IMG/VR virus record: IMGVR_UViG_3300030109_001381 | Location: 3,843-67,842 of that record | Length of the DNA: 64,000 nucleotides | Reading direction: 5' to 3' (one strand) | Source of the DNA: a virus | In this document: one piece after another, positions 17,478 through 63,765 of the stretch | Layout of the letters: each line of letters starts with the position of its first letter | Numbering within the stretch: position 1 is the first letter of the stretch | The notes under the pieces: generated by a model | Told to the model about the DNA's origin: nothing | What the model saw: the letters and a program-made list of their open reading frames with translations, nothing else | Database searches by the model: none | Translations under genes and position numbers: made by a program

Positions 17478-17806
17478 TAGTAAATACAGGTAAAGACGAT
17501 GTTGCGAGTAAAATTGCGGCGGCATATACAGTTGTGAAAGTGGGTAATGGTGGAGATGCTACGGCGGCTTCACAAGATGCCTTAGATGCATATGTAGCAC
17601 AGAAGAGCGTTACTCCCTCAAGAATAGGTTCACACTTAGTTTGGACTGTAGATTTCCTTGGTTCTGAATTGGGAAATCATGGAGTTTCGGAATTAGGTGT
17701 TTTCGACACTTCCGATACCCTCTTGAGCCGAGTCACCTTCACAAACACAGGGATAGTGGCGAATGCTGACACACTAACTTTGACTATTAGAATAGAGGTG
17801 GCATGA
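17474..17806 (+). CDS. Small baseplate/fibre-attachment protein
   Basis: 110 aa; 'MIVNTG...VGNGG...ELGVFD...LLSRVTF' resembles tail-fibre N-terminal/collar modules. Confidence 0.55.
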   Translation: MIVNTGKDDVASKIAAAYTVVKVGNGGDATAASQDALDAYVAQKSVTPSRIGSHLVWTVDFLGSELGNHGVSELGVFDTSDTLLSRVTFTNTGIVANADTLTLTIRIEVA

Positions 17807-20800
17807 TGACTAATTCAAATCCGGGGTTCCTATCTACACTATCTACCACTCCAAACACAAGAATAGTAGACGGAACGGATAATATCCATAGTGGCATAAT
17901 AAATGCGCTAAACGTAGGATTAGCAGATAATAGAGTCATAAGCGGTTTTGACATTGACCAATCAGATGGCGGCAGTTATACGACATATGGGGTTGATGCA
18001 GGTAAAATTATCAGAGATGGAATTCTAGTTTCTATTAGCGCAGTCTCCCTAACCACAACTGCGGCGGCAAGAGCAGGTAATGACTGGTATGCCGTGATTG
18101 TAGTTGATTCAGCAAATACAACTAAAATCAGAACAGGAGCATCAAGTTCCTCTACCGCAAAGGTATCTGCTTTGACCGCAGGGGATATCCCTGTAGCCAT
18201 TGTCAAATATCTAGCAGGTAGTGATAATGACGCAATAAATAGAAAGGTGCAATTTCTTGGTTATGCTCAAACTGCTAGAGGATTAAGTATCCTAAATAGT
18301 GGAAGTGAAACTGTTAGGATAAATGCGGCAGGGACAATTACAAAGGGAGGAGCCACTCTAACTCTACCTTCTTCAACAGGAACCATTGCTCTTACATCAG
18401 ACATACAATATCAGTCTGCAATACCTAATGCTACTTCTAGTCAGACAGGATTAGCCACGCAGACACAGATTACCAAATTAGATGGGATTGAAGCAAATGC
18501 AACTGCTGACCAAACCAAGTCAGATATCAATACGCTATACAGTTGGTCTTCTGACCCTGAAAGTGGTGCTACTGCTGACCAAACAGATGCAGAGATAGAA
18601 ACTGCATACAATGCTAGAGTAGCCCAAGTATCTTCAGCAGAAAGAACTGCTGGCAATTCTACTACTATCAAAAGATTCACACCTGCTGATATCAAGAGCA
18701 TGATTGACCAACATGAAACTGATACCAATACAGATACAGATGTTAGCATAGCCAATCTAAAGTCCCGGTTAAATTCAGATTTTGGCGGAGACTTCTCTAT
18801 CGGAACTCAAAGTGATGATACTGCTTCATTTGCAGGTCATTTAGTTGTAGGTGGGAATTTAACCATAAGTGGCTCTACTACTACAATTAATACCGAGACT
18901 GTATCTTTACAAGATAATATCATAATGCTGAATAGTAACTCAGCAAACACTCCAAGTGAAAATGCAGGGTTAGAAGTAGAACGAGGGAATTCAACTAACG
19001 TATTACTAAGATGGAACGAGGGAACTGATAGATGGGAATTCACTAATGATGGTGCAAATTATCATAACATCATTACACAAGCAGAAGCAGATGCAGGAAA
19101 ATATACGCATCCGAATTATGCTACAACTAACTTAGACACTTCCAATGCTGAGGTTGTATCTGAGATACAGACTAATGCTACTGGTCATATTACTGCAATG
19201 ACAAAAAGAACGATGACTCTTGGGCATCTAGGATTTACCGGGGCTACCGATGCCAACAAGTATGTTCATCCTAATCACTCAGGAGATGTAACATCAAGTG
19301 CCGATGGTGCGACTACTATTGCTAACAATGCAGTAACTACTGCTAAGATTGCAGATGATGCAATTACTTCTGCCAAAATAAACGATGGAGAAATAGTCAA
19401 TGCACATATCAATGGTAGTGCGGCAATTGCTCAAAGTAAAATTAGTGGATTGACTTCTGCCCTTTCAGGCAAAGAACCTAGTCTGACAATAAGTGATGGC
19501 CTAGATAGAACAGGTGCTACTATCAAGGTAGATATTGATGGACTAACTATTGAAAATGGAATGGATAGAAGTGCAGATTTCATTATGTATGATGATGCTA
19601 CTAATGGATTGAGAAGAATAAATCCAGCAAATCTATTCAGCAAGATAATTGCATCTGATATACCGGACATATCTTCGACTTACCGCGCAGTTGCTACCAA
19701 GTTAGTAAATGCAGATGTATCGAATAGTGCCGCCATTAGCGCAGATAAGATTGCAGATGGCTCTACTAACAAAGTATTTACCTCAACACTCAAAACCAAA
19801 CTTGATGGAATTGCCGCTAGTGCTACTGCTGGTGCTGACTGGAGTAGCAATGTTTCTAATATTTCTGTGACTAATGCACAACTTGCTGGAAGTATTGCTA
19901 ACGCTAAACTTGCTAATTCAGCAGTTACTATCAATGGAAGTGCAGTAAATCTTGGTGGGTCACTAACACTAACATCAGGAGATTTATCAGAAAACACAAA
20001 CCTCTACTATACAGATGAAAGAGTAGATGATAGAGTCAATGCTCTAATTACAGATGGAGAAGGAATAACTACAACCTACGATGATTCTGCTGGAACACTC
20101 ACTATAGCAGGTGAAGATGCTACTACAAGCAATAAGGGAATTGCCAAATTCGATACAGATGATTTTACCATCAGTTCCGGTAATGTGATGATTAAGTCTG
20201 CTGGTGTTTCTAACTCACAATTGCAAGGAGCAATTGCACAAAGCAAGATAACTAACCTAGTTTCTAATTTAGCGGCAAAGGTTGAGAGCCTATCTGACCT
20301 AAGCATTACTGCTTCTGCGGCTGAGATAAACATCTTAGATGGGGTTAGTGGGGTAAGTGCAACTGAGATAGGATACCTAGATGGAGTAACATCATCCATA
20401 CAAACTCAACTAAACAGTAAGTTGTCTTCGGTTTCAGTATCGGACTTAACAGGAATTGGTTCTCTAGATACGGCTCTAAATAGTGTTAGTGCTTCACACG
20501 ATACTTTGGCTTCTGCTAAGTCCATTAAGGATTATGTCGATTCAAAGGCAAGTGTGCAACTAGAATACACAATGGAAGTAGAAGGTACAGATGACACTAA
20601 CACACATCTTTTGAAAATTATTGACCAAAACACTAACTTTTCTGATGTAAACTTTAGTGGCTCATTAGGAATTAGTATAGGTGTCAATGAAGGTTCTGAT
20701 ACCTTAACTTTCTCAAGCAATGCTTGGCCTAAGAACATCCTTAGTTCTTCTTTCAATCAAGGTCTTCTAACTTTGAATACTAGGGATGGCAACACCATAA

Positions 20801-23800
20801 CCGCAACATTACCTGACGCTACAACTGATGCTCACGGTCTAATGACTGACGACCAATTTGATAAACTGGCGGCGATAGAAGCCCAAGCAGATGTTACCGA
20901 TAAAGCAAATGTGGTGGCTGCTCTTGGACTTCTTAATGAGAGCGACACTCTTTATCTTGGGGATGCTGGCAATGATACTACTGTTAGGGTCCGGGGTAAC
21001 TTCTTCGTAGATGGGACTCTAACTACCATTAATCAAACAGAAATTAACGTTCAAGATGCTCTCGTCTTTGAAGGAGCAACTGGTGATGACCACGAAACTA
21101 CTCTTCGCATTATAGACCCGACTGCTGACCGAGTAATTTCTCTTCCTGACATTACAGGCACAGTAGTTACAACCGGAGATTCGCAGACTATTGCTACTGG
21201 AATGATTGCTAACCTCGGTGTAACAACTGGTAAGATAAACAGTAATGCAGTCACTTCAGGAAAACTAGCAACAGATTCGGTAATTACTGCTAAAATAATA
21301 GATGATGCGGTTACTACTGCTAAAATTGTAGACGATGCGGTTACCATTGCTAAGATAGATGGAATCACCGATGCAGGTAGTGGAGTAATAATTAGTGGCG
21401 CAGAGAGAACCAAACTGAGTGGCATAGCGGCAGGTGCGGAAGTAAACGTACAATCTGATTGGAGTGCTTCTAGTGGTGACGCTAAGATTCTCAATAAGCC
21501 AAACGTGGAATACACATCTGCTATTCCGAATGCTACTTCTTCGCAAACTGGTCTAGTGACTTCGACTCAGATAACTAAGTTAGATGCTATTGAAGCAAGT
21601 GCTGATGTTACTGATGCTACTAATGTCGCGGCGGCAGGAGCATTGATGGATGGTGACTTCACATCTAATGGTTTCTTGAAGAGGACTAGTGCAGGTAGTT
21701 ATTCAGTAGACACCAACACATATCTAACTTCTCTATCAGTTACAGGGCTTTCAGATGTAGCGGCGTTTGAGACAAACTTCGCTGATGGTGTAAGTGCTAA
21801 TGATGACTCACTAGCCTCTGCAAAATCAATCAAGGCATATGTAGATAGCGTAGGTGGTGCGGCTACAGGCTCTACTACATTCCAACTAGAAGACGGAGAT
21901 GGAACAGAACTTACAATTGCTGATTCTAAGGAAATTAAGTTTGTACCTGCTTCAAGTCTTCTTACAATAAACTGGACAGATGTTGACAACGGTACGGATG
22001 CTGACCCATATGACCTGACATTCACCGTTAATCCTCTATTGTCAGCATACACAAATGATTCAAACTTCACTACGACTACTGCATTAAATAACGCAACTGC
22101 GGCTACTGCGATAACTGGTAAGGCACTTACAAACCTTGGAACTGGAACTGGTGGAGCAATAGCGGCAACAGATACTATCCTAGCCGCAATGCAGAAACTA
22201 GAAACTAGGACTGCACTCAATGATGCTAAGGTAACTAACACAGATGTTGACGTAACCGTTAGTAATCTAGAAGCAAGACTACCACAGATAGATACTGCTA
22301 CCACAATCGGAAATGGAGTTGCTATTACAACTGGTGGTGATTTAACAGTCACAGGTGACCTTGTTGTAAATGGAGCAACAACCACATTAGATGTCGCTAC
22401 TCTTACAGTAGAAGATAAGAACATAGTATTGGGTTCTGGAAACTCAACTAGTGAAATAATTGACGCTACAGGTATTACATTAGAAGGAGGAACTGGTGAC
22501 GACATAACTTTCCAATGGCAAGCAAGTGACAATCAAATGGAAATGAAGTGGGGTAGTAACTATGCCACTCTAAAGGCCGGGACATTTATCGGTGCATTAA
22601 CTGGAAACGTTACAGGCAATGCTGATACTTCCACACTTGCTTCGACCGTAACAGTTGTAGATTCCACAGATACTTCATCATATGTTGCGTTGTTCGATAG
22701 TGCAACAGGTAGTCTAGCGGCTAAGACAGATGCGGGAATAACATATAACTCTGGAACTGGTATGTTAACTGCTACTGGATTTACAGGGCCATTAACAGGT
22801 AATGCTGCTACTGCTACAAAACTTGCCGCTACTAAGAATATAGCGGGTGTAGCATTCGATGGTTCTGCTAATATCAATATTTCAATGACCAATCTTCACG
22901 ATACAGATTTAGGTTCTTTATCTGATGGAGAGTTATTGATTTATGATAGTGTCAATGGTTGGAAGGACGCTACATTAACTGCTGGGGCTAATACTACAAT
23001 TACAAATGGTGCTGGTTCTATTACCATTGCATCTGCTGATACAACTTATTCTGCTGGTCTAGGGATTGCTCTTGCTGGAACTACCTTCTCAGTAGCAAGT
23101 CCAACATCATTAACCAACATGACTGACGATGGAGGTGGTTCAACACTAACTGCCAACACAGGTGATATTGTTATGGTATGGGATGCTGATGGTGGAGGAG
23201 GTTCAGGAACTTGGGTAAAGATGACTCTATCAGAACTATCGCAATTTGCAACAGATAATGGTTCGGCTGGTGTCTTAAAGTTCTTCAAGCAAATTAATCT
23301 AACTGCCGCAACTGGTGGCAATGTTGTAAGTGGGGCAACTGATATTGTCGCAGATAGTGCTAATGACCCATTGGGAATTGTTGCGGGACCAGCAATAGAC
23401 CTAACAGGAGACAATACATCTACGAATGCTTCACTAACAATAGGAGTCAATATTGATGCTCTCAATGAATTGGATGCAGCACCTCATACGACTCAAGATG
23501 AATTTATGGTTTCTGATAATGGAACCGAGAAAAGAGTATCTATGGCTAACGTTGCTGATGGTGTTTTCGCTCATGTAAGTGGAGATGCAACAATTGCGGC
23601 AGGTGGGGCTTTGACAATTGCCGCTAATAGCGTAGCACTAGGAACTGACACTACTGGAAACTACATGACTGATGTTTCTGCCGGGACGGGAATAGATGTT
23701 ACTCATACTGCGGCGGAAGGGTCAACTGCTACTATTGCAGTAGACGTATCTGACTTTATGAGTGGTGGTGCAAATAACCGTGTTCTTACCGCCGCAGGTA

Positions 23801-26800
23801 CAGACACATTCCAAGGAGAAGCAAACTTACTTTATGATGGCGATGCTTTAGTTGCTCTTGGTGCTACTAATGATAAGGATGTTTTATGGGTAGGAAATAC
23901 TGCTGGTAATAGTGGTTCAACTGCTGGTATCACACATCTTGGTATATCTCATTGGGGTTCAGGCACATACCCATCCACTAGAATAACTGCAAGAGAGGAT
24001 TCAGCAGGGAGTTATCTTGGTTCTTTGTCATTCTCCACAAGAGGTGCAGCAAGTGATTCTGCGGCTACTGAGAGAATGAGAATCGCTTCTGATGGTAAAG
24101 TCGTAATAGGTGCAACTACTGCTGATGAACTTCTTCATGTAAGTGGTGCGGCGGCAGGGGATAGCGTTTCCTTGAAGGTCACAAATACTGACGATACAGA
24201 TGACGCTTCGGTTGCCTCTCTTCATCTTGAAAGTCAAAGAGGAACAGATAGTAATTTCTACCTTGAGCATGATGCCTATGGTGCAACTAAATTCTATACT
24301 GGACAGGCAGCAAAGAATCATGCTTTGACTATGAATGCAAATGGTTCTACAACAGTTGAAGCGGCATTAATAGGAGATTCAACTGCTTCATTTACTGGCT
24401 CTCTTACAATGAACCATGCAGGTTCAGATATATATGCTGATATTATCGGCCCAAACAACAGAAACCTAAGATTCGTTCTACGAGACAATGGAGATACGGA
24501 TTCCTTCCTCTTTAGAAACGCGGCTGGAACAGACATAATGTCCTTAGCAAGAACAGGAGATTTAACTGTCACAGGTGCAAATAGAAATGTAGCCATTTCC
24601 GATGGTAAAATTACTCTAGGTGGGGCTTTAGATGTAGACTTTGATGGTTCACATACACGCATAACTCATGATGCGGCTACAGATTCCTCGATGATATTCA
24701 AGAATGCTGATGGTGCAACCATACAGTTCAATATGGGTAGTGACAAGGGTATTGAGGTAAACAAGGATGGCAATGTAGAATTGTATTATGACAATTCTAA
24801 GAAGTTTGAAACTACTTCTGCTGGCGTAGCAATAACAGGAGACTTATCTGTATCAGGAACAACTACTACCGTAAATACAGTAACGATGGAAGCGGCTAAT
24901 GCGATAGTGTTTGAAGGAGCAACTGCTGATTCCCATGAAACCACATTATCTATTGTAGACCCGACTTCTGACCATACTCAGTATCTAATCAATCAAGGTG
25001 GATATATTCCAGTATTAGCCGCCGCAACTACAACTGCTATTACTTCTACACCTGCTGAACTGAATGTATTAGATGGATATACTGGTAGTGTTACTGAGTT
25101 AAACTATCTTGATACTTTACACGCAACAGGTGTGACTGCTACTGAGTTTGATTATCTAGATGGTGTAACTTCTAACATACAAACTCAATTAAATACAGTT
25201 TCATCTGCAACTGGAGATGGACTTTCCTATGATGGTTCAACTGCTAACGGTGTATTGACATACAAAGATGCAGATGAGATTTCTGTAGAATCTACATTGA
25301 CATATGACCCAAGTGGTATGTTGAAGATTGACGTTGGCGGATTTGCTAGAATGGAACTTCATGGTGATAATGGCGCATACATAGACATGAGCAATCACGA
25401 TGGAACTAATGATGACTTCGATGCTAGACTCATTACAACTGGTAGTGGATTAGACATAACTACTGCGGGTAGTTCTTCACCAATTACTCTGAAAACTAAT
25501 GGTGGTAGTAGGGTAAAGATAGAGGATGCCGCCGTTACAGTCTATCCATCAATTCTTCAATTTTCCACAACAGGTGCGCCTACGATAAAAGGCGGAAACC
25601 ATAATCCGATAACGATTTACGGTAATGCAGATGGAACTGCTACTTCAACAACCAATAACATAGTCTCACGCTCAACGGCGGCAGCAATAGACTTCGATGT
25701 GAATGCAAGCCAGCAATTGGCTATGAGGGTACAAGACAACAAGGATGTAAACGTCTATGGTGTTCTAAATGGACCGGGAGTAGCAGAAGGCGGCTATGGT
25801 GCTAACTCGTTCCATCTTGGTGATACTGGAAGTACGGAGGGTAATGATTGGTATGAGGTATTCCGATGGACTCCTAACAACACGATGAGCGCAACAAACT
25901 CAAACCAATACAAGAACTTCGCCGCGAGATTCCAAGTTGTCGGAAGGGGTATTCAAAGAATAAACTTCGATATGTATGTGCGTGGTGAGTATGGGATTCA
26001 AGGCGACTCAGGTTGGTGGACAAAGGAATTCGTCATAGATGGTCTTGCCCAAAGCACAGACGGAGGTGGTATTGCTTCGCCTGATGGAGACTCTATCTTC
26101 AAGATGGTCTATAACTCCGGCACAAGTTTGAGTATGCCCTTTGCAAGTTTGTATATGAGAAGGGATGAAAATTGGGAGATAAGAACCTGCAACCTAATAT
26201 CCATGTTCACCAATTGCGTCTTTGAGTTCAAGGACACCAATGCCGGAGAAACAACCCCAACGAATGACGGACAAAGCGACTCTCACGATTTGTCTCCTAC
26301 AATCAGAAAGAAACTGAGAGTTGATGTGAATAATCAATTAATCAACGGTATGGTCGAGTCAGGAATTTACCTAGATGATGCTGACCAAGAGTTAGTTATC
26401 AAGACCGCTACTGACCCCCTAATTAGAGCATGGGATACGACTGACAATTATGCCGCTACGCTACAGGCCGCTTCAAGTGGTGCTTGGTTAGGACTAGGAG
26501 ACATGGATTCTTCTGATACTACATGGATGAAGTTTGGTGCATTTAGCGGCATTAACAACCTTGACACCAAAACAAGGGACTTCCACATATACGGGACAAA
26601 CACCGCAACAGGATTCTATTTCGATGAGTCGGCAGGGAAGTTTGGAATAGGCACTACAAGCCCTGTAACTCTGTTAGATGTAGCAGGTAGTATCACCGTA
26701 GCAGACCACATTATTCATAGTGGTGACACAAACAATATGATTAGTTTCACAACGGATACTCAGACTTTCACTACTGCGGGTTCTGCTAGGATGACCATTG

Positions 26801-27180
26801 CTTCCGGTGGTGATGTTACAGTAGCAGGTGCATTCTCTGCGGCTACCAAGTCTTTCGACATAGAACATCCAACAGAAGAAGGAAAGAGATTGCATCACGG
26901 TTCTCTTGAGGGACCGGAACACGGTGTCTACATCAGAGGTAGATTAGAGGGAGATACAATAGAACTACCCGACTACTGGCTAGGTCTAGTTGATGAGGAT
27001 ACAATCACGGTTCAACTAACACCTAACAAGGGATTCCAACAGATATACGTTGACCACATAGAGGACAACAAGGTGTATGTGGGAACACAGACTGATACTC
27101 CAATAGACTGCTTCTACTTCATACAGGCAGAGAGAAAGGACGTTGACAAAATGGAGGTAGAGTATGACGTTGTGGTTTGA
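17803..27180 (+). CDS. Giant mosaic tail fibre/adhesin
   Basis: 3125 aa, T/S/A/G/D-rich, with VTTAKIxDDA repeats and duplicated modules. C-terminal 'KSFDIEHP...LHHGSLEGPEHGVYIRG' domain is common at the ends of marine virus fibres. Confidence 0.75.
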   Translation: MMTNSNPGFLSTLSTTPNTRIVDGTDNIHSGIINALNVGLADNRVISGFDIDQSDGGSYTTYGVDAGKIIRDGILVSISAVSLTTTAAARAGNDWYAVIVVDSANTTKIRTGASSSSTAKVSALTAGDIPVAIVKYLAGSDNDAINRKVQFLGYAQTARGLSILNSGSETVRINAAGTITKGGATLTLPSSTGTIALTSDIQYQSAIPNATSSQTGLATQTQITKLDGIEANATADQTKSDINTLYSWSSDPESGATADQTDAEIETAYNARVAQVSSAERTAGNSTTIKRFTPADIKSMIDQHETDTNTDTDVSIANLKSRLNSDFGGDFSIGTQSDDTASFAGHLVVGGNLTISGSTTTINTETVSLQDNIIMLNSNSANTPSENAGLEVERGNSTNVLLRWNEGTDRWEFTNDGANYHNIITQAEADAGKYTHPNYATTNLDTSNAEVVSEIQTNATGHITAMTKRTMTLGHLGFTGATDANKYVHPNHSGDVTSSADGATTIANNAVTTAKIADDAITSAKINDGEIVNAHINGSAAIAQSKISGLTSALSGKEPSLTISDGLDRTGATIKVDIDGLTIENGMDRSADFIMYDDATNGLRRINPANLFSKIIASDIPDISSTYRAVATKLVNADVSNSAAISADKIADGSTNKVFTSTLKTKLDGIAASATAGADWSSNVSNISVTNAQLAGSIANAKLANSAVTINGSAVNLGGSLTLTSGDLSENTNLYYTDERVDDRVNALITDGEGITTTYDDSAGTLTIAGEDATTSNKGIAKFDTDDFTISSGNVMIKSAGVSNSQLQGAIAQSKITNLVSNLAAKVESLSDLSITASAAEINILDGVSGVSATEIGYLDGVTSSIQTQLNSKLSSVSVSDLTGIGSLDTALNSVSASHDTLASAKSIKDYVDSKASVQLEYTMEVEGTDDTNTHLLKIIDQNTNFSDVNFSGSLGISIGVNEGSDTLTFSSNAWPKNILSSSFNQGLLTLNTRDGNTITATLPDATTDAHGLMTDDQFDKLAAIEAQADVTDKANVVAALGLLNESDTLYLGDAGNDTTVRVRGNFFVDGTLTTINQTEINVQDALVFEGATGDDHETTLRIIDPTADRVISLPDITGTVVTTGDSQTIATGMIANLGVTTGKINSNAVTSGKLATDSVITAKIIDDAVTTAKIVDDAVTIAKIDGITDAGSGVIISGAERTKLSGIAAGAEVNVQSDWSASSGDAKILNKPNVEYTSAIPNATSSQTGLVTSTQITKLDAIEASADVTDATNVAAAGALMDGDFTSNGFLKRTSAGSYSVDTNTYLTSLSVTGLSDVAAFETNFADGVSANDDSLASAKSIKAYVDSVGGAATGSTTFQLEDGDGTELTIADSKEIKFVPASSLLTINWTDVDNGTDADPYDLTFTVNPLLSAYTNDSNFTTTTALNNATAATAITGKALTNLGTGTGGAIAATDTILAAMQKLETRTALNDAKVTNTDVDVTVSNLEARLPQIDTATTIGNGVAITTGGDLTVTGDLVVNGATTTLDVATLTVEDKNIVLGSGNSTSEIIDATGITLEGGTGDDITFQWQASDNQMEMKWGSNYATLKAGTFIGALTGNVTGNADTSTLASTVTVVDSTDTSSYVALFDSATGSLAAKTDAGITYNSGTGMLTATGFTGPLTGNAATATKLAATKNIAGVAFDGSANINISMTNLHDTDLGSLSDGELLIYDSVNGWKDATLTAGANTTITNGAGSITIASADTTYSAGLGIALAGTTFSVASPTSLTNMTDDGGGSTLTANTGDIVMVWDADGGGGSGTWVKMTLSELSQFATDNGSAGVLKFFKQINLTAATGGNVVSGATDIVADSANDPLGIVAGPAIDLTGDNTSTNASLTIGVNIDALNELDAAPHTTQDEFMVSDNGTEKRVSMANVADGVFAHVSGDATIAAGGALTIAANSVALGTDTTGNYMTDVSAGTGIDVTHTAAEGSTATIAVDVSDFMSGGANNRVLTAAGTDTFQGEANLLYDGDALVALGATNDKDVLWVGNTAGNSGSTAGITHLGISHWGSGTYPSTRITAREDSAGSYLGSLSFSTRGAASDSAATERMRIASDGKVVIGATTADELLHVSGAAAGDSVSLKVTNTDDTDDASVASLHLESQRGTDSNFYLEHDAYGATKFYTGQAAKNHALTMNANGSTTVEAALIGDSTASFTGSLTMNHAGSDIYADIIGPNNRNLRFVLRDNGDTDSFLFRNAAGTDIMSLARTGDLTVTGANRNVAISDGKITLGGALDVDFDGSHTRITHDAATDSSMIFKNADGATIQFNMGSDKGIEVNKDGNVELYYDNSKKFETTSAGVAITGDLSVSGTTTTVNTVTMEAANAIVFEGATADSHETTLSIVDPTSDHTQYLINQGGYIPVLAAATTTAITSTPAELNVLDGYTGSVTELNYLDTLHATGVTATEFDYLDGVTSNIQTQLNTVSSATGDGLSYDGSTANGVLTYKDADEISVESTLTYDPSGMLKIDVGGFARMELHGDNGAYIDMSNHDGTNDDFDARLITTGSGLDITTAGSSSPITLKTNGGSRVKIEDAAVTVYPSILQFSTTGAPTIKGGNHNPITIYGNADGTATSTTNNIVSRSTAAAIDFDVNASQQLAMRVQDNKDVNVYGVLNGPGVAEGGYGANSFHLGDTGSTEGNDWYEVFRWTPNNTMSATNSNQYKNFAARFQVVGRGIQRINFDMYVRGEYGIQGDSGWWTKEFVIDGLAQSTDGGGIASPDGDSIFKMVYNSGTSLSMPFASLYMRRDENWEIRTCNLISMFTNCVFEFKDTNAGETTPTNDGQSDSHDLSPTIRKKLRVDVNNQLINGMVESGIYLDDADQELVIKTATDPLIRAWDTTDNYAATLQAASSGAWLGLGDMDSSDTTWMKFGAFSGINNLDTKTRDFHIYGTNTATGFYFDESAGKFGIGTTSPVTLLDVAGSITVADHIIHSGDTNNMISFTTDTQTFTTAGSARMTIASGGDVTVAGAFSAATKSFDIEHPTEEGKRLHHGSLEGPEHGVYIRGRLEGDTIELPDYWLGLVDEDTITVQLTPNKGFQQIYVDHIEDNKVYVGTQTDTPIDCFYFIQAERKDVDKMEVEYDVVV

Positions 27181-40262: not shown

Positions 40263-40369
40263 TTTCTATCTCTCCTATTTTCTTCCATATTCCTGTGATA
40301 TCTTTCCCATGTCATTCCTTCATCAAATGTTACCCATGCCCATAATTTCTTCAGGAACTTTAGAACCAT
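40259..40369 (-). CDS. Microprotein (36 aa; not in the ORF track)
   Basis: MVLKFLKKLWAWVTFDEGMTWERYHRNMEENRRDRK; bridges polB-C and the nuclease with overlaps at both ends. Confidence 0.4.
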   Translation of the reverse strand: MVLKFLKKLWAWVTFDEGMTWERYHRNMEENRRDRK

Positions 40370-41259
40370 TCTGTCAATTCCCCCTGTCTTCTATCCTTGG
40401 ATACTTGTTTCATGTCCCATCCCATTGCAGTAAATATTGGTTCTGCTTTGTTAAGAACTGATAAGGCATAATGTAGATAGTCGGGATTAAACCCATCTAT
40501 CTCTTCTAACTTCCTAAATGAAATATAATTAGGAACAGTTGCTACTTGATTTATTGGATGATGGTATGTGCAATTACATCTAATTATCTTCAAAAACATA
40601 TAGGAATCATCAATTGGGTTATGAGGATTTAATGAATTATAGAATAACACTCCCTCTATCCCCGCACCTACTGAAGGTCTTTTATTTGCACTAGTCCAAA
40701 AAGACGGTGAGTTACAACAAGTATTGGCGGCCATAGTGAGATTGTGCAGGGATTTCTTATGTTGCCAACCGTTCTTTTTGCAATTGGAACAATACACCGT
40801 AAATCTCTCTTCACGATATCTAGTCCTCTTAGTTAAATCTCCAAGAGGAATCTCACCCGATAAGACTTCATTGTATTTCTCCCTAAGATAGTCTGCTATG
40901 TCACTTTCACTTTGCTCGTTAACCCACATTTTCAATACCGTGAGTTGAACATCCTTAGCCAACTTAGTTTCTGATATCCTCTTGGCGGTAAATCCGGTCA
41001 TTACGAACTTTTCTTCGTCAAGGTATTCTCCATCTATCCAAGATATCATACCAGCATTTCTATTCTTAACAGACCCAACACCTAGAGTCCGGTAAAACTT
41101 CTCAAACTCCAAAGTCACCGGATGGTTTTTCAGATTGAAAACATTAGGAAAATGTTCTCTCACTTTATCGTTCAAGGTGTCTACTATCTTCATAGCATGT
41201 TCGGGAGAATCAACCCCAACATACAAGGAATCTGTATGTCCATATTTTATATCAGTCAC
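40360..41259 (-). CDS. polB: Family B DNA polymerase, C-terminal subunit (motif C and thumb)
   Basis: Begins with motif C variant 'YGHTDS'; 'LEFEK', 'KNRNAG', 'GFTAKR'; C-terminal PIP-box-like 'QGELTEWF'. Confidence 0.85.
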   Translation of the reverse strand: MTDIKYGHTDSLYVGVDSPEHAMKIVDTLNDKVREHFPNVFNLKNHPVTLEFEKFYRTLGVGSVKNRNAGMISWIDGEYLDEEKFVMTGFTAKRISETKLAKDVQLTVLKMWVNEQSESDIADYLREKYNEVLSGEIPLGDLTKRTRYREERFTVYCSNCKKNGWQHKKSLHNLTMAANTCCNSPSFWTSANKRPSVGAGIEGVLFYNSLNPHNPIDDSYMFLKIIRCNCTYHHPINQVATVPNYISFRKLEEIDGFNPDYLHYALSVLNKAEPIFTAMGWDMKQVSKDRRQGELTEWF

Positions 41260-41587: not shown

Positions 41588-41793
41588 TCTTCATCATCTC
41601 CATACAATGCCCAATCTCTTCTAATTCCCCACTTCTTCAAGTCCGCTCTAGTCCAAGGTCTTCTCATCTTGATTACATCATCAACCAATTGATAGATACA
41701 AGTTGGACATACTGGACCGGACGGTGTGCTTTGTAGGGTTATTACTCCCTTTCTATCATTACCACCTACTCTATTGCAGACTACACACTTCAT
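41584..41793 (-). CDS. Zinc-finger protein between the polB halves
   Basis: 69 aa; CVVC...CPTC. Confidence 0.55.
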   Translation of the reverse strand: MKCVVCNRVGGNDRKGVITLQSTPSGPVCPTCIYQLVDDVIKMRRPWTRADLKKWGIRRDWALYGDDEE

Positions 41794-43487
41794 AATTTTC
41801 TCACCTCTCTTGCGGCTATTCTAATTGCCTCTCTAGCACTAGCCGTAATACTTGCGGCAATATCTAAGTCAGACCAAGAAAAGCCTTGATATGCGGTGAT
41901 GCCATAAAAGGATGCCATCAATCGCTTAACTGCTAATTGGTTGTTATTCCAAATAACATAATTATCCGGGTCACTTCGCATTCGTGATTTATACTCTTCA
42001 CGAAGTTCTTGAAGTTCTAATACTGACTTAGGCAATAAGCCTAATTTATCAGTTCGATAATATCTCATATCTTTTTCATCAGACTCAGAAAAGTCCTTGG
42101 GTTCCAGAAGATTACACCCAAGTTCAGTTGGGGTATCTGATTTTGTTTCCCAAGATATGTTTCTTGAGATTATCATAGATGGGTATAGCGATTTGAAATC
42201 CAATGCCGCTACGTTCCTATGTAGGCCATTAGTCGATTCGCTAAGAGGGTCATAGACCATTGCCCCATCATACCGTCCCTTCTCCTTCTTGACAGTCGTT
42301 GGAGCCTTCCAAGGGGCATTTCTCATGAAGTATATTCCTCCCATGTTACTAGCGTAGTAGCAAGCATCATGTGGTGCAACAAGCAAACGTTGCAATGCTA
42401 AGATAGCCTCCGTTAGATGGTTCTTCTCATCTATCCTAACGAGAAGTTCTACGTCAATCCTAGCGTACTCTAGATATGTAGCAGAATCCTCTAACCAAGC
42501 CCTAGCAAAGAACTCATTCTTATCGGGGAACTTCTCACTAACTAGTTTCTTCTCTCCCAATACAGACTCAGCAACATAGTCTAATGCCAATGAAGGCAAA
42601 GTCCCTTGTTGTGAATCATTCCATTGTCTCTCAAAAGCCAACTCCAAAGGAACGGTAATCATTCCCTTAACTGGTTGATAAGTAGGTGACCAATTATCCA
42701 CTTGCTTGTTGTAGACCTTGACCTTCTCCTTATGCCATGATACCCCCGACACCTCATCGAAAGGAGAAATCAGTCTAGGGTCTAGATTATACTTAGCCAT
42801 ACGATGAATTAACTTAGGTAGGTCGAACTTCCAACCGAACCAAGAGATAAGCATGTCGGGTTCCTTATTCATCAGATACGATAGGAATCCAGCAAGCATA
42901 GTTTTCTCACTTGAATAGACATTAATATCGTAATCACACAAAGAAGGTTTTACAATTTCATCATACTTATCTTTTGGATACCAAGCAAACATCTTGTAGG
43001 TCTTATCGAATGAATCGTATGCTACTATTGTAGTTATCATCTCCTTGAAACTACCTGTTGTCATCCACTCCATATCCCAATAGCATTTCCTCATTTCATA
43101 TATTGGCAATTGATTAAGACAATCTACTGCATATCTATGATGGTGTGGAACTCTACCTTCATAACTTTCAATGTTCAATAACTCCAAGTATTGTTTAATG
43201 TCCATAGAATACCTTGGATGATTAGGTGTCCATATTAACTTGGACAAATCTTCTCCTTCCAGATTCTTGAAGTCACCTGTCTCAAACTTCATCTCAATCT
43301 TGAATGAACCACCTTTATCCCTACTTGTGATAGTAGTTTTATTGGTGCTTTCTAATGCAAGTTTATCTTTGGTTCTGATAAACATGTATGGTCTAAACTC
43401 ACGATAACCTATGATTTGAGAAATAGACTTACCATCATCATCTCTATACCTCAATCCTACTCCATCTTTCACTTTACTAATTATCAT
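41790..43487 (-). CDS. polB: Family B DNA polymerase, N-terminal subunit (3'-5' exonuclease, motifs A and B)
   Basis: ExoI 'WDMEW', ExoII 'WFGWKFDL', ExoIII 'YARID', motif A 'LDFKSLYPS', motif B 'KRLMASFYG'; stops before motif C. Confidence 0.9.
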   Translation of the reverse strand: MIISKVKDGVGLRYRDDDGKSISQIIGYREFRPYMFIRTKDKLALESTNKTTITSRDKGGSFKIEMKFETGDFKNLEGEDLSKLIWTPNHPRYSMDIKQYLELLNIESYEGRVPHHHRYAVDCLNQLPIYEMRKCYWDMEWMTTGSFKEMITTIVAYDSFDKTYKMFAWYPKDKYDEIVKPSLCDYDINVYSSEKTMLAGFLSYLMNKEPDMLISWFGWKFDLPKLIHRMAKYNLDPRLISPFDEVSGVSWHKEKVKVYNKQVDNWSPTYQPVKGMITVPLELAFERQWNDSQQGTLPSLALDYVAESVLGEKKLVSEKFPDKNEFFARAWLEDSATYLEYARIDVELLVRIDEKNHLTEAILALQRLLVAPHDACYYASNMGGIYFMRNAPWKAPTTVKKEKGRYDGAMVYDPLSESTNGLHRNVAALDFKSLYPSMIISRNISWETKSDTPTELGCNLLEPKDFSESDEKDMRYYRTDKLGLLPKSVLELQELREEYKSRMRSDPDNYVIWNNNQLAVKRLMASFYGITAYQGFSWSDLDIAASITASAREAIRIAAREVRKL

Positions 43488-54162: not shown

Positions 54163-54517
54163 TTGCTACACCAAGATTGGACTGTGCTTGTATGGCCTTC
54201 GCCTCCTTAGCCAAGTCCTTCTCATGCTGACGCATCATCATCAAGTCATTTGCTCTCACCAGTTTCTTATGGGTGTAGTCGATTTGGTCACCATTGCCGT
54301 AGGTGCATCTATCCAAGAGCAACCTCATATGGCAAACCAAGTCTAGCAACTCCTTGCTACTCTTCGCTTCCTGAGCAACCCACTTCGCCAATACCTTTGC
54401 CGAGTCACTTGCTTCCTTTCCATTCATTCTTCCTTCATTTTCATTCATCTTCATTTCCTCCATTTTGTTTGTAATACCCATAGAACACATGCTTGCAAAG
54501 TTCTGTCTTGCAGTCAT
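54134..54517 (-). CDS. Hypothetical helical protein; true start probably near 54450
   Basis: The 5' part of the track ORF overlaps the JAB gene. Confidence 0.45.
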   Translation of the reverse strand: MTARQNFASMCSMGITNKMEEMKMNENEGRMNGKEASDSAKVLAKWVAQEAKSSKELLDLVCHMRLLLDRCTYGNGDQIDYTHKKLVRANDLMMMRQHEKDLAKEAKAIQAQSNLGVANGGQPDGGW

Positions 54518-55022
54518 ATGTCAGGTATTGATTGTCTCCCAATACAATTGCCGATTCCATAACTGGCCTCCAAGTATTGATTGTTTTCCAGTCTGTGCCG
54601 GAGAAGAATGCTTTACCCATTGGGTGTGTATGAATCCAACACCTTACAGGTAACTTCATTCCAGTCAGTTGTCCTTCGTCATCTTGAAACGAAACAAAAC
54701 TACTCGTTCCAGCACTTATGAATAACTTGTTGTTACTATCTACTACGACTTGAACTTCCCTTGGAGTTTCAAATGCCTCCATTGACATTCTCCATATCTC
54801 CGTCAAGAAATGCTCAACCGCATTATCGGGATAAAGGTAAATTAATCCCTTATCTCCTACAACGGTATGGAATGCTTCTCTTATGTGAGCCTTCCAATCA
54901 GGTTTCTTAGCACCTTCTGTTTTCTCATAAGCCTCTTCCACACGCCATTCATCATACGCATCATCTATTCTTTTCTCATCTCTTTCTGCATCTTCAATTT
55001 GTTTGTCACTCATTTTTCCCAT
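54441..55022 (-). CDS. JAB/JAMM (MPN+) metalloprotease
   Basis: Complete motif: 'REVQ' (E) ... 'WIHTHPMGKAFFSGTD' = HxH-x7-S-x2-D. Confidence 0.85.
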   Translation of the reverse strand: MGKMSDKQIEDAERDEKRIDDAYDEWRVEEAYEKTEGAKKPDWKAHIREAFHTVVGDKGLIYLYPDNAVEHFLTEIWRMSMEAFETPREVQVVVDSNNKLFISAGTSSFVSFQDDEGQLTGMKLPVRCWIHTHPMGKAFFSGTDWKTINTWRPVMESAIVLGDNQYLTYDCKTELCKHVFYGYYKQNGGNEDE

Positions 55023-55023
55023 T

Positions 55024-55263
55024 TTATTGTCCTCCTAATTCTGCCATTATCAAATCCTGTGAATTGACGAATTTATGATATGCTTCGTGTCCCGCAATGA
55101 AACCACCTGCATGTCTTTTAGTTCCTAAGAACTCTTCACCACAAACGGGACATGTTACTTTCACTATTTCCGCTTGCATATAATACCCATCCGTTGATAT
55201 CACATTCATTACTTTCTCCAAGTCTTCCTCGGATAATCCTTCTATGTCTTCTTCTCCACTCAT
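55024..55263 (-). CDS. Acidic C2H2 zinc-finger protein
   Basis: 'CPVCGEEF...GHEAYH'; between the E1 and JAB genes. Confidence 0.65.
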   Translation of the reverse strand: MSGEEDIEGLSEEDLEKVMNVISTDGYYMQAEIVKVTCPVCGEEFLGTKRHAGGFIAGHEAYHKFVNSQDLIMAELGGQ

Positions 55264-55850: not shown

Positions 55851-56059
55851 TCTGTTCCCTCCCATTTATTCTCAAAGATAACCTTCTCCGCTTCTGAGAA
55901 AGACGCAGTAAAGATAGTACCGTTATCCATATGGATATCTATCACAAATCCCTGATTCGTCAGAAATTGTTTATCCATCTTGTTGATGGTATAGGCACAT
56001 ACCTTATCCAAATCCACCATTGTCATTCCACTTGTTGTTTTCATTTTCATTCTCTTCAT
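55847..56059 (-). CDS. Small hypothetical beta-rich protein
   Basis: 70 aa, ATGA-coupled between TFB and E1. Confidence 0.55.
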   Translation of the reverse strand: MKRMKMKTTSGMTMVDLDKVCAYTINKMDKQFLTNQGFVIDIHMDNGTIFTASFSEAEKVIFENKWEGTE

Positions 56060-56976
56060 TTTATTCCTCCTAATATTTCTTTTATGTCATATGCGTGACT
56101 CGCTTGGTTCAGTTCTTTCTTATTTATTCGTAACATACCACAAATCCTTGAAGCGGCTTGCCTCAATCCATAATCGGATGCTTGTGCATGTTCTCTTATG
56201 TCGCTCTGTTTGAACCCTGAATGAGTTAATTTACTCGCTACCCAAATGGTAGCAGCAATATCATTCTGCGACATTCTTTCATCTAAACTGTCTTTCATTA
56301 CATCTACATGGTTTACTAATTGTAAAGCAGATGCTCTGAAATCAGAGTTTGTTCCTATTGTAATCATCTTTGATACTATAGCCTCAGCATCACTTACTGA
56401 TGTGGGCTGAGAGAATACAGAAGGATTGCGATAGCGAGTTGCTATCTTCTTAGCCCATTTAGTATTGGACTTGCTATCTCCACCTGCAATCTTCTGATGA
56501 GACTTGGGCGTTAGTTTGAATCCTCTATCTTTCAAGATGTAATAGGTCAAACTAGCGGCCCTAACTTCTAGGCTTATACCAATGAAGAAATGCTCCTCTC
56601 TCAAAGTATTGTAGGTAGCAACACACTCATGAATTATGTTCTGAGCATGTTCACCTACAACGTATCTAGAAACTATCATAGCAACATCTGCTCTGAATCT
56701 ACTCTTTCTCGTTCTATCTCTGTTTGCTCTTTTCTGATGCAATCTCAACGCCATCCCTTTTGATTTCCTAGCATCTCCCAAACTAATGTAGGTTCCTAAT
56801 TCCCTGTGGTTATCTGCGACCACAGAATATTTCTTACCGTCAGCCTTCTGTCTGTCGGGGTTATAGATTCTTTCATAACCATGTGAAACATGGACTGCCC
56901 CACAATCAATGCAAGTTATCTCTCCTGTCTTGTCATCTTCTGTAGTTCTTAGACAACCACATAACTCACACTTCAT
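56056..56976 (-). CDS. tfb: Transcription initiation factor B (TFB/TFIIB)-like protein
   Basis: N-terminal Zn ribbon 'CELC...GEITCIDCGAV', B-linker-like 'LGTYI...LRLHQKR', two cyclin-like repeats ('AASLTYY', 'IAATIWVAS...QSDI'). Confidence 0.75.
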   Translation of the reverse strand: MKCELCGCLRTTEDDKTGEITCIDCGAVHVSHGYERIYNPDRQKADGKKYSVVADNHRELGTYISLGDARKSKGMALRLHQKRANRDRTRKSRFRADVAMIVSRYVVGEHAQNIIHECVATYNTLREEHFFIGISLEVRAASLTYYILKDRGFKLTPKSHQKIAGGDSKSNTKWAKKIATRYRNPSVFSQPTSVSDAEAIVSKMITIGTNSDFRASALQLVNHVDVMKDSLDERMSQNDIAATIWVASKLTHSGFKQSDIREHAQASDYGLRQAASRICGMLRINKKELNQASHAYDIKEILGGIK

Positions 56977-58262
56977 TGGGACGCCTCCATCTTCTTCTGA
57001 CGATACTTCAGGTCAGCCTTTTCAGACCACTTAATCAGTTTACCAATATTCAGACGGTGGCCCTCACCACCACTCTTTAGCATGTTCTCGATAGTGTGTC
57101 TGATGGTGTAAATCAATGGGCCAGCCATTTGGTCATTCATTAGAATCAATGCCCTAGCACTTAGTTGGTCGCCAATGCTTGAGTTGTTGTGTAGGTTATC
57201 AATACAGATTGGTCCCTGCAAACTGCAACCCTTCCATGTAGTACCATCTCCCAAAACCCTGTAGGTGTTAACATTCTGATGACCTCTCTTCATGCCACCA
57301 CCTTCGTCTGCAATAACCCAATCGAACAATTTGCCCCTAACAAACAATGCTCTGTTACTTGGGTTCTTGAACTGGACGAAGTGAATGTTCTCATACTCCC
57401 TATCCAATTGGAACAGAAGCCTTGTGGCTTGGTTCTCTACCATATCATTAGTTCTGTTCTGCATTAACCAAGCAGTCGAAAGTTTCGTTTGAGCCTCAGT
57501 TGGTTCTTCACCAAATAGTCTAGACCATAGTTGACTAGGTGTAATTCTAGACCATAGTTTGGACTTACTACTCTTATGCTTGTGCGTATTGATGAATGTA
57601 TTCAAATCAACAATTGAGATAGAAGCCCAAATGCCCTCGGATATCTCAAGTGCCGCTTCCTTCTCACCAATTAATCTAGTATTGATTAGGCACTCTTGCT
57701 TGTTACCCATGTGCCAAAACTCAAATGGAGTTCTGTTCTCAAGAGCATACCAAACATTTGGAGGTATCTTCAAGCATCTGTTGATGTATTCATTCATCAC
57801 CTCAGCACTTCTAGTTAGAACGCTACGAAGAATAATCTTCGCCAATGTTTTCTGAGCATCTCCCTTGTTGAACTTGATGGGTTCCCAATGGTCACCACCA
57901 TACAAGGCAATCTTAGAATCATTACTAGTTTTTCCATAATAGAATTCTGCCTCACCATCAGGATACTTGAAAGTAACTTGATTCAAGAATCTCTCAGTAT
58001 TCCCTCTTAGGGGAAACAGGTTCTCCTTTATCGAAAGAGTCACTAGACCCAACATAGGGTCTTCCTGTCCTACTCTACTAGCAGTTCTGATGTTTGGTCT
58101 TTCTACAGAAATTTGCGTTTCACCAAAATTGTTTGTTCTGATAATCTTACCATTCTGATACAATCTAGGAAACTCGTTCTTCTTAGATACCTGTAGCAGG
58201 AAACTGGTGGAAACATTCTTTTGTGTGTCATTCGTTTGCGGTATGTAATATTTTATTTTCAT
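56973..58262 (-). CDS. Uncharacterised protein with a candidate E2-like C-terminal domain
   Basis: About 430 aa; 'HQNV ... GPICIDNL' resembles the E2 signature HPN...GxICLDxL. Confidence 0.45.
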   Translation of the reverse strand: MKIKYYIPQTNDTQKNVSTSFLLQVSKKNEFPRLYQNGKIIRTNNFGETQISVERPNIRTASRVGQEDPMLGLVTLSIKENLFPLRGNTERFLNQVTFKYPDGEAEFYYGKTSNDSKIALYGGDHWEPIKFNKGDAQKTLAKIILRSVLTRSAEVMNEYINRCLKIPPNVWYALENRTPFEFWHMGNKQECLINTRLIGEKEAALEISEGIWASISIVDLNTFINTHKHKSSKSKLWSRITPSQLWSRLFGEEPTEAQTKLSTAWLMQNRTNDMVENQATRLLFQLDREYENIHFVQFKNPSNRALFVRGKLFDWVIADEGGGMKRGHQNVNTYRVLGDGTTWKGCSLQGPICIDNLHNNSSIGDQLSARALILMNDQMAGPLIYTIRHTIENMLKSGGEGHRLNIGKLIKWSEKADLKYRQKKMEASQ

Positions 58263-58575
58263 GTTTATCACTTATTTTATCATTCATATTTGTATTGAAA
58301 TAATATTTGTATTCCTCATTGGGGTTTTTCATATAGTATTTCTTTTTCTCTATTTCATCATAGAGTTCATCCATTGTTCTAAATGATGAATGGCCATTTA
58401 GAACTAGGAAATATATCCAACGAAACAGACGGGGATAACTGATGTCTCCCTTTTCTGCTCTTTTAAATTCATATTGAATTTCATCCCGAAAGTAATTATT
58501 TGTCGATAAGATAATTTCGTCCTTCAGGAAAAGTAAGTCCTTCAGCGATGATTCGTTGGCTTTTCTTTTCATCAC
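58228..58575 (-). CDS. Hypothetical protein (noticeably AT-rich)
   Basis: 115 aa, Y/K/N-rich. Confidence 0.45.
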   Translation of the reverse strand: MMKRKANESSLKDLLFLKDEIILSTNNYFRDEIQYEFKRAEKGDISYPRLFRWIYFLVLNGHSSFRTMDELYDEIEKKKYYMKNPNEEYKYYFNTNMNDKISDKHENKILHTANE

Positions 58576-60654: not shown

Positions 60655-60858
60655 CTAACATCCACCGACTATGGCCGGAACTAGGTTCACGTTGTCCACT
60701 TCGTCCCAAGCAATGTTGCCGATGGCTTCTCTCGTTACCATTTCTCCGTCAACATATACCCAATGGGTCGGGTGGTCAGTTATCTGCTCAACCATTTGGG
60801 TCGCAGATACATCTACCAGTTCGGTGTGGCCTGTGTCATTCATTATCCTTAACTTCAT
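60655..60858 (-). CDS. Ubiquitin-like (beta-grasp, ThiS/SAMP-like) protein ending in GG-C
   Basis: 67 aa; 'VYVDGEMV...DNVNLVPAIVGGC'; RBS GGAGGT upstream. Confidence 0.8.
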   Translation of the reverse strand: MKLRIMNDTGHTELVDVSATQMVEQITDHPTHWVYVDGEMVTREAIGNIAWDEVDNVNLVPAIVGGC

Positions 60859-63261: not shown

Positions 63262-63765
63262 TTATGCACACCTCACATACCATGAAGGTTCTTCTTTCTT
63301 CCAGTAGGCTATCCTTCTCTTATCGTGAATGTAATACTGTCTGTATTTATCCACCGTTGACATCTGGTCGAAACCACTTACTTTCCTGCAATGCATGTTG
63401 TCAGCAATTGCTATTGCAAATGGAGTCAATCCAATGTCAGGTAATGTTTCGACTACTTCCATCCAAATAGGATTGTAGTCATTCATTGTTAGTTCACACT
63501 TGTGAGTCTTACCATATCTACTGGTATATTCTTCACATAGTGAACCTGCATGTTCCCACAACCATAGGAAGTTCTGTCTGCTTTCTCTTGCCCATATAGT
63601 GCAAGGATGATTCAACATTACTGGCCTGTAAGGACTATCAAATCCTAAGTGGTCAGCAATGGTGGACATCATTTGCAAACTTTCCAATGGCATTTTGACC
63701 GCATGTTTATCCAACACATATGTCGCGGCTTTACTTGGTTCTTCATCTAATACAAATATATTCAT
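63262..63765 (-). CDS. Pyrimidine-dimer DNA glycosylase (DenV/Pyr_excise)-like protein
   Basis: 'MNIFVLD...DKHAVKMPLESLQM...NHPCTIWARES...EYTSRYGKTHKC...YRQYY'. Confidence 0.75.
   Translation of the reverse strand: MNIFVLDEEPSKAATYVLDKHAVKMPLESLQMMSTIADHLGFDSPYRPVMLNHPCTIWARESRQNFLWLWEHAGSLCEEYTSRYGKTHKCELTMNDYNPIWMEVVETLPDIGLTPFAIAIADNMHCRKVSGFDQMSTVDKYRQYYIHDKRRIAYWKKEEPSWYVRCA

Follow-up and report, generated by a model that had tools for sequence, protein, structure and literature searches.

The DNA analysed here, hereafter the window, is a stretch of 64 kb (64,000 nucleotides) taken from a 67.8-kb IMG/VR virus record (IMGVR_UViG_3300030109_001381, positions 3,843 to 67,842). Its minus strand carries an orphan gene whose product, 432 amino acids (aa) when counted from a GTG codon, is referred to as T432. 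A preliminary description of the window had pointed to a signature in this protein resembling the active site of ubiquitin-conjugating enzymes (E2s): the tetrapeptide HQNV followed by GPICIDNL, with β-strands ahead of the cysteine, a helix behind it and a longer spacer than is usual between the two motifs. The present analysis suggests that T432 may be a very divergent viral E2-like protein, encoded together with a ThiF-type activating enzyme (E1), a JAMM/JAB metalloprotease and a small ubiquitin-like protein (Ubl). The evidence for this reading includes an invariant cysteine, Cys356, in a predicted C-terminal domain whose structural neighbours are mostly E2s and their relatives.

Homologues of T432 begin at the methionine of an MKIK sequence, three codons after the GTG, which leaves 429 aa. 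Judged from these homologous sequences, 429 aa is probably the true length, with the start at position 58262. The translation around both motifs reads ...GGGMKRGHQNVNTYRVLGDGTTWKGCSLQGPICIDNLHNNSSIGDQLSARALILMND... (minus strand), and the positions given at the outset for HQNV, for GPICIDNL and for the Cys codon are exact on this open reading frame (ORF; Table 1). The pattern G.[IV]C[LIV]D.L, sought in every window ORF of at least 35 aa (55,449 residues altogether), has a single match, at the T432 site.

The candidate active site

Conservation was read from three alignments of T432 and its relatives, A1 and A3 with 46 sequences each and A2 with 61, in which identity goes down to 24%. Cys356 is found in every sequence (46/46 in A1, 46/46 in A3 and 61/61 in A2) and forms the only invariant Cys column. 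The conservation of this residue, which had been proposed as a check on the E2-like signature, is therefore borne out. Cys356 directly follows the last strand (349–355) and lies 10 residues ahead of the central helix (366–377). In the models, it appears to occupy the topological place of the catalytic cysteine of E2s, that is, the loop leading from the sheet to the central helix.

Within HQNV, Gln332 is kept in all sequences of A1, A3 and A2, and Val334 is nearly as constant (45/46, 42/46 and 59/61, respectively). The longer spacer noticed in the preliminary description corresponds to a variable β-hairpin, so that 16–49 residues separate Gln332 from Cys356 across the family and 23 do so in T432. 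Since the two motifs stand at opposite ends of one hairpin, Gln332-x-Val is likely to be near Gly-Pro-Ile-Cys in space. In classical E2s, the HPN motif is adjacent to G-x-I-C across a short turn. The requirement that the motif should lie about 8–10 residues before the cysteine applies to classical E2s only.

Gln271 and Arg273 (helix 1), Asp317, Asp368, Gln369, Arg373 and Thr389 are polar residues that are also invariant. The Glu178-Asn179-Arg180 triplet, assigned to the third sub-domain, is also invariant, and so is W215. As far as the alignments tell, this polar set would exceed what a passive scaffold usually keeps.

Predicted structure and its neighbours

The full-length AlphaFold2 model, built with a 46-sequence alignment, has a predicted local distance difference test score (pLDDT) of 90 and a predicted template modelling score (pTM) of 0.74. 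Four α/β sub-domains are delimited in it: residues 1–90, 95–178, 181–271 and 275–432. Folded alone, the C-terminal part reaches a pLDDT of 92 and a pTM of 0.83. Strands 296–300, 307–312 and 317–321 precede a long hairpin (335–346/349–355) which ends at Cys356, and helices 366–377, 388–400 and 417–431 come after it. The AlphaFold2 models thus agree with the strands and the helix that had been suspected on either side of the cysteine.

An aligner independent of Foldseek was applied to the T432 domain, and at least 36 of the 50 listed rows are titled E2/UBC, UEV, RWD, UFC1, FANCL or Cap2. The listed rows also include the kinetochore RWD domains of KNL1 and Mis12, I215L of African swine fever virus, FTS and VPS37A, which we take to belong to the same superfamily. 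Residues 273–409 of the full-length model likewise have E2/UEV/RWD neighbours with this aligner. On re-examination of the Foldseek candidates, 26 of the 40 listed rows were E2 or UFC1/Atg10. The E2 alignments are colinear over nearly the whole E2 core, as in the pairing of residues 15–155 of the domain model with −3 to 153 of 4ccg_A. What speaks for a real UBC relationship is that one superfamily fills the list and that the colinear coverage of the E2 cores is near-complete. From the residue numbers of the catalytic cysteines of E2s, the colinear ranges would place Cys356 a few residues at most from the E2 cysteine.

The UBC fold comprises helix 1, a four-stranded meander, the central helix and C-terminal helices; measured on it, T432 has consistent E2-type neighbours but weak, non-significant scores. 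The structure prediction and structure searches for which the preliminary description had asked thus give a mixed picture: the neighbours are overwhelmingly E2/UEV/RWD, and the Foldseek scores do not reach significance. Taken from the models, the C-terminal ~150 residues of T432 appear roughly E2-shaped, with a weak resemblance in fold.

Relatives of T432

A word-indexed search returned 111 homologues of T432 and an exhaustive HMMER search 151 representatives. The 150 HMMER matches listed include no longer or fused forms, all being of similar size or shorter. The roughly 150 relatives are all on marine viral contigs resembling group B magroviruses. Prokaryotic genomes provided only three matches (L167, L168 and L169), none of them in an archaeal genome, on contigs placed in bacterial metagenome-assembled genomes of Maricaulis, Altibacter and Balneolaceae. 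These are most likely mis-binned viral contigs from marine metagenomes.

No family for T432 was found in Pfam, PHROG, PADLOC or NCBIfam, the one row that NCBIfam gave (E 0.12) being noise. A profile of the C-terminal domain, run against proteins of 85–370 aa, detected nothing beyond fragments of the T432 family itself. The ESM Atlas gave no usable match, the GenBank phage collection gave no match, and the three matches in BFVD are all T432 family members.

Neighbouring genes

On the minus strand, genes for a 372-aa and an 84-aa protein of unknown function, the 67-aa Ubl, a ribonucleotide reductase (RNR) and a 115-aa unknown are followed by T432; after it come a 306-aa homologue of the transcription factor TFIIB/TFB, a 70-aa unknown, the E1, a 79-aa protein, the JAB, further unknowns and a ligase. 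Several start and stop codons overlap among these genes. The TFB gene separates T432 from the E1, and the RNR gene separates the Ubl from T432.

The E1 keeps the GxGGxG loop, the CCADN..R motif and an invariant cysteine, Cys156, in GSFSCQ (alignment A5, 38 sequences). Among the NCBIfam models, PRTRC ThiF scores best (1.1e-16), ahead of ThiF (7.5e-10), MoeB (2.4e-8) and UbaA (3.9e-6). The JAMM pattern H.H.{6,9}S..D is present in all 59 homologues of the JAB.

The Ubl had been missing from the preliminary description and was recovered here. Homologues of it occur in 120 of 157 related loci, and most of the other 37 loci appear to be broken off upstream. All 120 end in GG plus 0–3 variable residues, seven of them exactly at GG. 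The viral E1/JAMM pair probably has this 67-aa ThiS-like protein as its modifier.

The 79-aa protein, whose gene lies between those of the E1 and the JAB, has C38, C41, H59, H63, G77 and G78 invariant in 27 sequences and a variable final residue. Its hidden Markov model (HMM) matches 100 of the 157 loci. It could be a second modifier (zinc-binding and not of the β-grasp type), a cofactor or a target. Loci without the 79-aa GG protein (L046–L080 and L136–L166) have, between E1 and JAB, one or two proteins that start with M..WT.EEE. These look Myb/SANT-like by eye, and many have a hydrophobic C-terminal segment.

The 306-aa protein is a genuine TFIIB/TFB homologue by its sequence profile and would stand outside the cascade. 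A profile of 33 homologues matches TFIIB chains at an E of 3.5e-25 over nearly the full length, covering a zinc ribbon and two cyclin-like repeats. As an alternative E2 or E3, this protein is ruled out.

Table 1. Location of T432, of elements within it and of associated genes (window positions; all on the minus strand)
Feature	Position	Strand	Basis or remark
T432, orphan protein, 432 aa from GTG	56973..58271	(-)	ORF and translation
HQNV, T432 aa 331–334	57270–57281	(-)	
GPICIDNL, T432 aa 353–360	57192–57215	(-)	
Cys356 codon, candidate thioester-forming nucleophile in GPICIDN motif	57204..57206	(-)	sole invariant Cys column
Gln332 codon, only invariant HQNV residue	57276..57278	(-)	start of hairpin, Cys356 at the other end
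Variable β-hairpin, aa 335–355, between Gln332 and Cys356	57207..57269	(-)	secondary structure and insertions in alignment A3
C-terminal UBC/RWD-like domain, aa 275–432: helix, 3 strands, variable hairpin, Cys, 3–4 helices	56976..57449	(-)	
TFIIB/TFB homologue (viral), 306 aa, between T432 and E1	56056..56976	(-)	start overlaps T432 stop by 4 bases
Minimal ThiF-type E1, 201 aa	55260..55865	(-)	Pfam ThiF 3.4e-13; NCBIfam PRTRC_ThiF 1.1e-16
79-aa protein, CxxC...HxxxH and conserved GTKRHAGGF, ends GG+1	55024..55263	(-)	no family match
JAMM/JAB metalloprotease, 193 aa, HTHPMGKAFFSGTD	54441..55022	(-)	Pfam Prok-JAB 2.5e-4, below curated cut-off
ThiS/MoaD-like Ubl, 67 aa, ends ...NLVPAIVGGC	60655..60858	(-)	Pfam ThiS E 0.047, weak

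Viral setting

The plus-strand block of the window contains the gene of a tail tube protein together with very large ORFs. Two of the latter, of 2344 and 3125 aa, lie in this structural block at 10443–17477 and 17803–27180. The replication block on the minus strand encodes two nucleases (ERCC4 and PD-(D/E)XK), an RNR of class II type, an ATP-dependent ligase, a clamp loader resembling RFC and a family-B DNA polymerase in split form. The polymerase is distributed over two ORFs (41790–43487 and 40360–41259, minus strand), as in some group B magroviruses. At the edge of the replication block, a homologue of pyrimidine-dimer DNA glycosylase is encoded at 63262–63765 on the minus strand (Pfam Pyr_excise 6.8e-8). 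Judged by gene content, the virus resembles magroviruses of the group B type. Magroviruses are tailed and have Marine Group II archaea as their assigned hosts. A gene set with split polymerase and RNR is described for group B magroviruses in passages of Philosof et al. (PMC5434244).

Co-occurrence and complex prediction

In 80 loci collected with T432, tblastn detected the E1 in 77 loci, the JAB in 76 loci and TFB in 72; most of the misses fall on contigs that are cut short. Starting from the E1, among the best 80 of 396 relatives, T432 was found upstream in all 65 loci that have at least 3 kb of upstream sequence.

For the complex prediction, two copies of the E1 and the 79-aa GG protein were modelled together with full-length T432, the partner to be scored, and every chain was given its alignment. 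T432 with E1 scored 0.53 (runs 0.55, 0.53 and 0.46); the best of three controls scored 0.11, and replacement of the E1 brought the score to 0.00. At least 95% of contacts are shared between the runs, and the pLDDT of the partner is 71 or higher. Of 80 solved complexes, 58 reach the mark on the same scale, as do 2 of 110 mismatched pairs, and scores at the mark but not above 0.60 come from only seven of the 80 solved complexes and from both mismatched pairs that passed. The models lend weak support to a T432 complex with the E1.

A divergent E2-like protein?

Our tentative reading, to which we give slightly less than half of our confidence, is that T432 is a very divergent E2-like protein that belongs to a Ubl cascade encoded by the virus. 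In such a cascade, the viral JAMM would trim the 0–3 residues that follow GG in the 67-aa ThiS-like Ubl. The 201-aa ThiF-type E1 would then adenylate the C-terminus of the Ubl and load it on Cys156, from where it would be handed to Cys356 of T432. Through its three N-terminal α/β domains, T432 would deliver the Ubl to viral or host targets. Gln332, at the base of the hairpin beside Cys356, may stand in for the asparagine of the HPN motif of classical E2s. The preliminary description had suggested that T432 might complete an E1-E2-JAB cascade. The E1 and the JAMM/JAB are indeed present and the Ubl has been found too, while the identity of T432 as the E2 stays tentative.

Several observations count against an E2 identity. 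None of the sequence and profile methods connected T432 with any E2 family: Pfam, applied to 46 family members at E up to 10, gave scattered chance matches and no E2 family, and sequence-profile searches of the PDB with A1 and A3, again at E up to 10, gave 0 matches. Foldseek against the PDB returned nothing at E ≤ 0.001, the best values being 0.012 (full length) and 0.24 (domain). The spatial match of Cys356 with the E2 cysteine is, in the models, one of topology. Across A1, A3 and A2, the shares of sequences that have His331 are 18/46, 12/46 and 12/61, and those with Asn333 are 9/46, 7/46 and 6/61. Gene order by itself says little, as TFB and RNR are interspersed among the Ubl-type genes. 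Co-occurrence is weak evidence of shared function, because the loci represent one syntenic viral lineage with synteny kept throughout; the counts show conservation more than an independent functional link. The complex prediction included the 79-aa GG protein; the most likely modifier, the ThiS-like Ubl, was not among its chains. Conjugation of archaeal SAMPs requires no E2, hence a cascade of this kind need not have one. Lastly, an alignment of profiles (hhalign) between the T432 domain (A3) and seven Prok-E2_D proteins had a probability of 2.8% (P 0.016).

The Prok-E2_D proteins come into consideration through the E1. Its plasmid relatives found with tblastn are mostly annotated as ThiF of the PRTRC system; PRTRC protein B lies within the flank examined in five of eight plasmid regions, and three proteins are confirmed as Prok-E2_D by Pfam. 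The one, non-significant, hhalign alignment pairs Cys356 with the conserved cysteine of Prok-E2_D. Full-length T432 and the 306-aa TFB had no hhalign match to Prok-E2_D, and an HMM of the seven members identified no candidate in the window or in related loci (best E 0.17, in the ligase). T432 thus does not match the profile of Prok-E2_D (PF14460, motif N-V...G-x-x-C-x-G), the profile agreement being confined to the 2.8% of hhalign.

The proposal that HQNV is an HPN-like motif has been given up. Its His and Asn are poorly kept, Gln332 alone is invariant, and the variable hairpin takes the place of the spacer. Compared with known E2 families, T432 is wanting in sequence or profile similarity and in the HPN motif, and agrees in its conserved cysteine and in its cognate partners, an E1 and a GG-ended Ubl encoded with it.

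Other explanations

One alternative holds that T432 is unrelated to the Ubl genes. It would then be a cysteine enzyme or a replication or transcription factor, for example a partner of TFB, and its UBC appearance would reflect a common α/β arrangement. The stop of T432 overlaps the start of the TFB gene; the block also has RNR, ligase, RFC and the split family-B polymerase, and the invariant E178, N179, R180 and W215 lie outside the C-terminal domain. One fold superfamily, however, dominates all three structure searches with nearly full E2 coverage, the searches offered no alternative fold or family for the C-terminal domain, and the complex score, weak support as it is, depends on the E1 (0.53 to 0.00). 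We regard this explanation as unlikely.

T432 could also be a non-catalytic UBC/RWD/UEV scaffold or an E3-like adaptor in the Ubl pathway. The E1 would conjugate directly, in a manner like SAMPylation, and Cys356 would be structural or regulatory. Among the structural neighbours, non-catalytic RWD, UEV and FANCL ELF/DRWD domains equal true E2s in number, and FANCL ELF heads the list. The protein as a whole is a string of α/β modules, and the weak-support complex prediction (0.53 against 0.11 for the best of three controls) fits a scaffold equally well. Prokaryotic operons in which inactive E2/RWD-like domains stand beside E1 and JAB are described in parts of PMC1779556. Known inactive UBC-like domains, on the other hand, are without the cysteine, whereas Cys356 is the sole invariant Cys over up to 61 sequences that are 24–57% identical and belongs to the motif that is best conserved in the protein. 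Such a role is in our view rather unlikely.

The JAMM protease lies beside the carrier protein in CysO/Mec+ and in QbsE/QbsD. A relay that carries sulfur, as in ThiS/MoaD, CysO-Mec or QbsE-QbsD, and in which T432 would accept or use sulfur through a persulfide on Cys356, perhaps for nucleotide or DNA modification, would suit a ThiS-like Ubl with extra residues after GG, genes adjoining those of nucleotide metabolism and a JAMM beside the Ubl, but is improbable: in scans with Pfam and NCBIfam, neither T432 nor its neighbours showed a signature of rhodanese, PP-loop or radical-SAM type, the E1 is best matched by the conjugation-type PRTRC ThiF ahead of ThiF and MoeB, and the T432 domain is UBC-like and not sulfurtransferase-like.

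Significance of a proposed viral cascade

The E2-like reading can be extended to a joint one, which we consider possible, though less likely than not. Abundant marine archaeal viruses would encode a complete Ubl cascade of their own, consisting of a trimmed ThiS-like Ubl, a 200-aa Cys-bearing E1, a JAMM and a new E2 family. T432 would act as a combined E2/E3, with the Gln/Cys site and the variable hairpin fused to three N-terminal recognition domains, and the cascade would tag host or viral proteins during infection. The zinc-binding, GG-tailed 79-aa protein might participate as a modifier that is not of the β-grasp type.

To our knowledge, non-eukaryotic E2s have so far been confined to a few archaea and to bacterial plasmid and defence operons. 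Should the joint reading be true, a new branch of ubiquitin-type machinery would be added: an archaeal virus with Ubl, E1, JAMM and an E2-like protein that is an orphan in sequence. It would imply that such cascades serve viruses as well, whether against archaeal hosts or within them, besides serving hosts against viruses. Furthermore, the four proteins, with an E1 of 200 aa, would make a compact system for the study of the minimal requirements of E1-to-E2 transfer. A literature search joining magrovirus with ubiquitin found no paper in the library covered, and ubiquitin, ThiF and JAB are absent from the main texts (supplements aside) of four articles on magroviruses and archaeal tailed viruses (PMC5434244, PMC10160649, PMC11706807 and PMC8651126).

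Comparison with known systems

In the UBC-fold E2s (UQ_con, including UFC1, which has no HPN), the elements are arranged in the order found in T432: helix, sheet, Cys loop, central helix and C-terminal helices. T432 shares with E2s a single essential-looking cysteine in a G-x-I-C-[IL]-D context, and Ubl, E1 and a deconjugating protease are encoded alongside it. Unlike E2s, it has no detectable sequence homology to them and no HPN, Gln alone being invariant, while a hairpin of 16–49 residues precedes the cysteine and about 270 residues, in three α/β domains, stand in front of the domain. It also differs from UQ_con and UFC1 in being encoded by a tailed archaeal virus.

The modules of FANCL (ELF and double-RWD) are non-catalytic and end in a RING, whereas T432 has an invariant cysteine and no RING. 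T432 does not fit the definition of an inactive RWD/UEV domain, a UBC-like fold that lacks the catalytic cysteine, given that its cysteine is invariant; the fold match to this class is as weak as that to E2s.

Prokaryotic operons combining E1, E2, JAB and Ubl are already known, as PMC1779556 and PMC11601596 relate. Unlike CBASS Cap2/Cap3, Bil and Bub, the system described here is encoded by a virus and is not a host defence. Its E1 and E2-like components are separate proteins, and T432 has no PADLOC match. Bub works via oxyesters, according to PMC11601596; the viral E1 and T432, unlike this system, both retain their cysteine.

The archaeal SAMP/UbaA/JAMM system is similar in its ThiS/MoaD-like modifier ending in GG, its ThiF-type E1, its JAMM and its archaeal setting. 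SAMPylation proceeds without an E2, however, the match of the viral E1 to UbaA (3.9e-6) is far weaker than that to PRTRC ThiF, and most members of the viral Ubl family need C-terminal trimming.

The PRTRC system of bacterial plasmids, composed of Prok-E2_D (protein B), JAB (protein A), ThiF and Prok_Ub (protein C), provides the best family match of the viral E1. It differs from the viral block in that T432 does not match Prok-E2_D, the Ubl is ThiS-like and not Prok_Ub, the gene order is another one and there is no ParB. Both nevertheless have the same list of components, namely a small Ubl, an E1, a JAB and a Cys-bearing E2-like protein, and both are carried on a mobile element.

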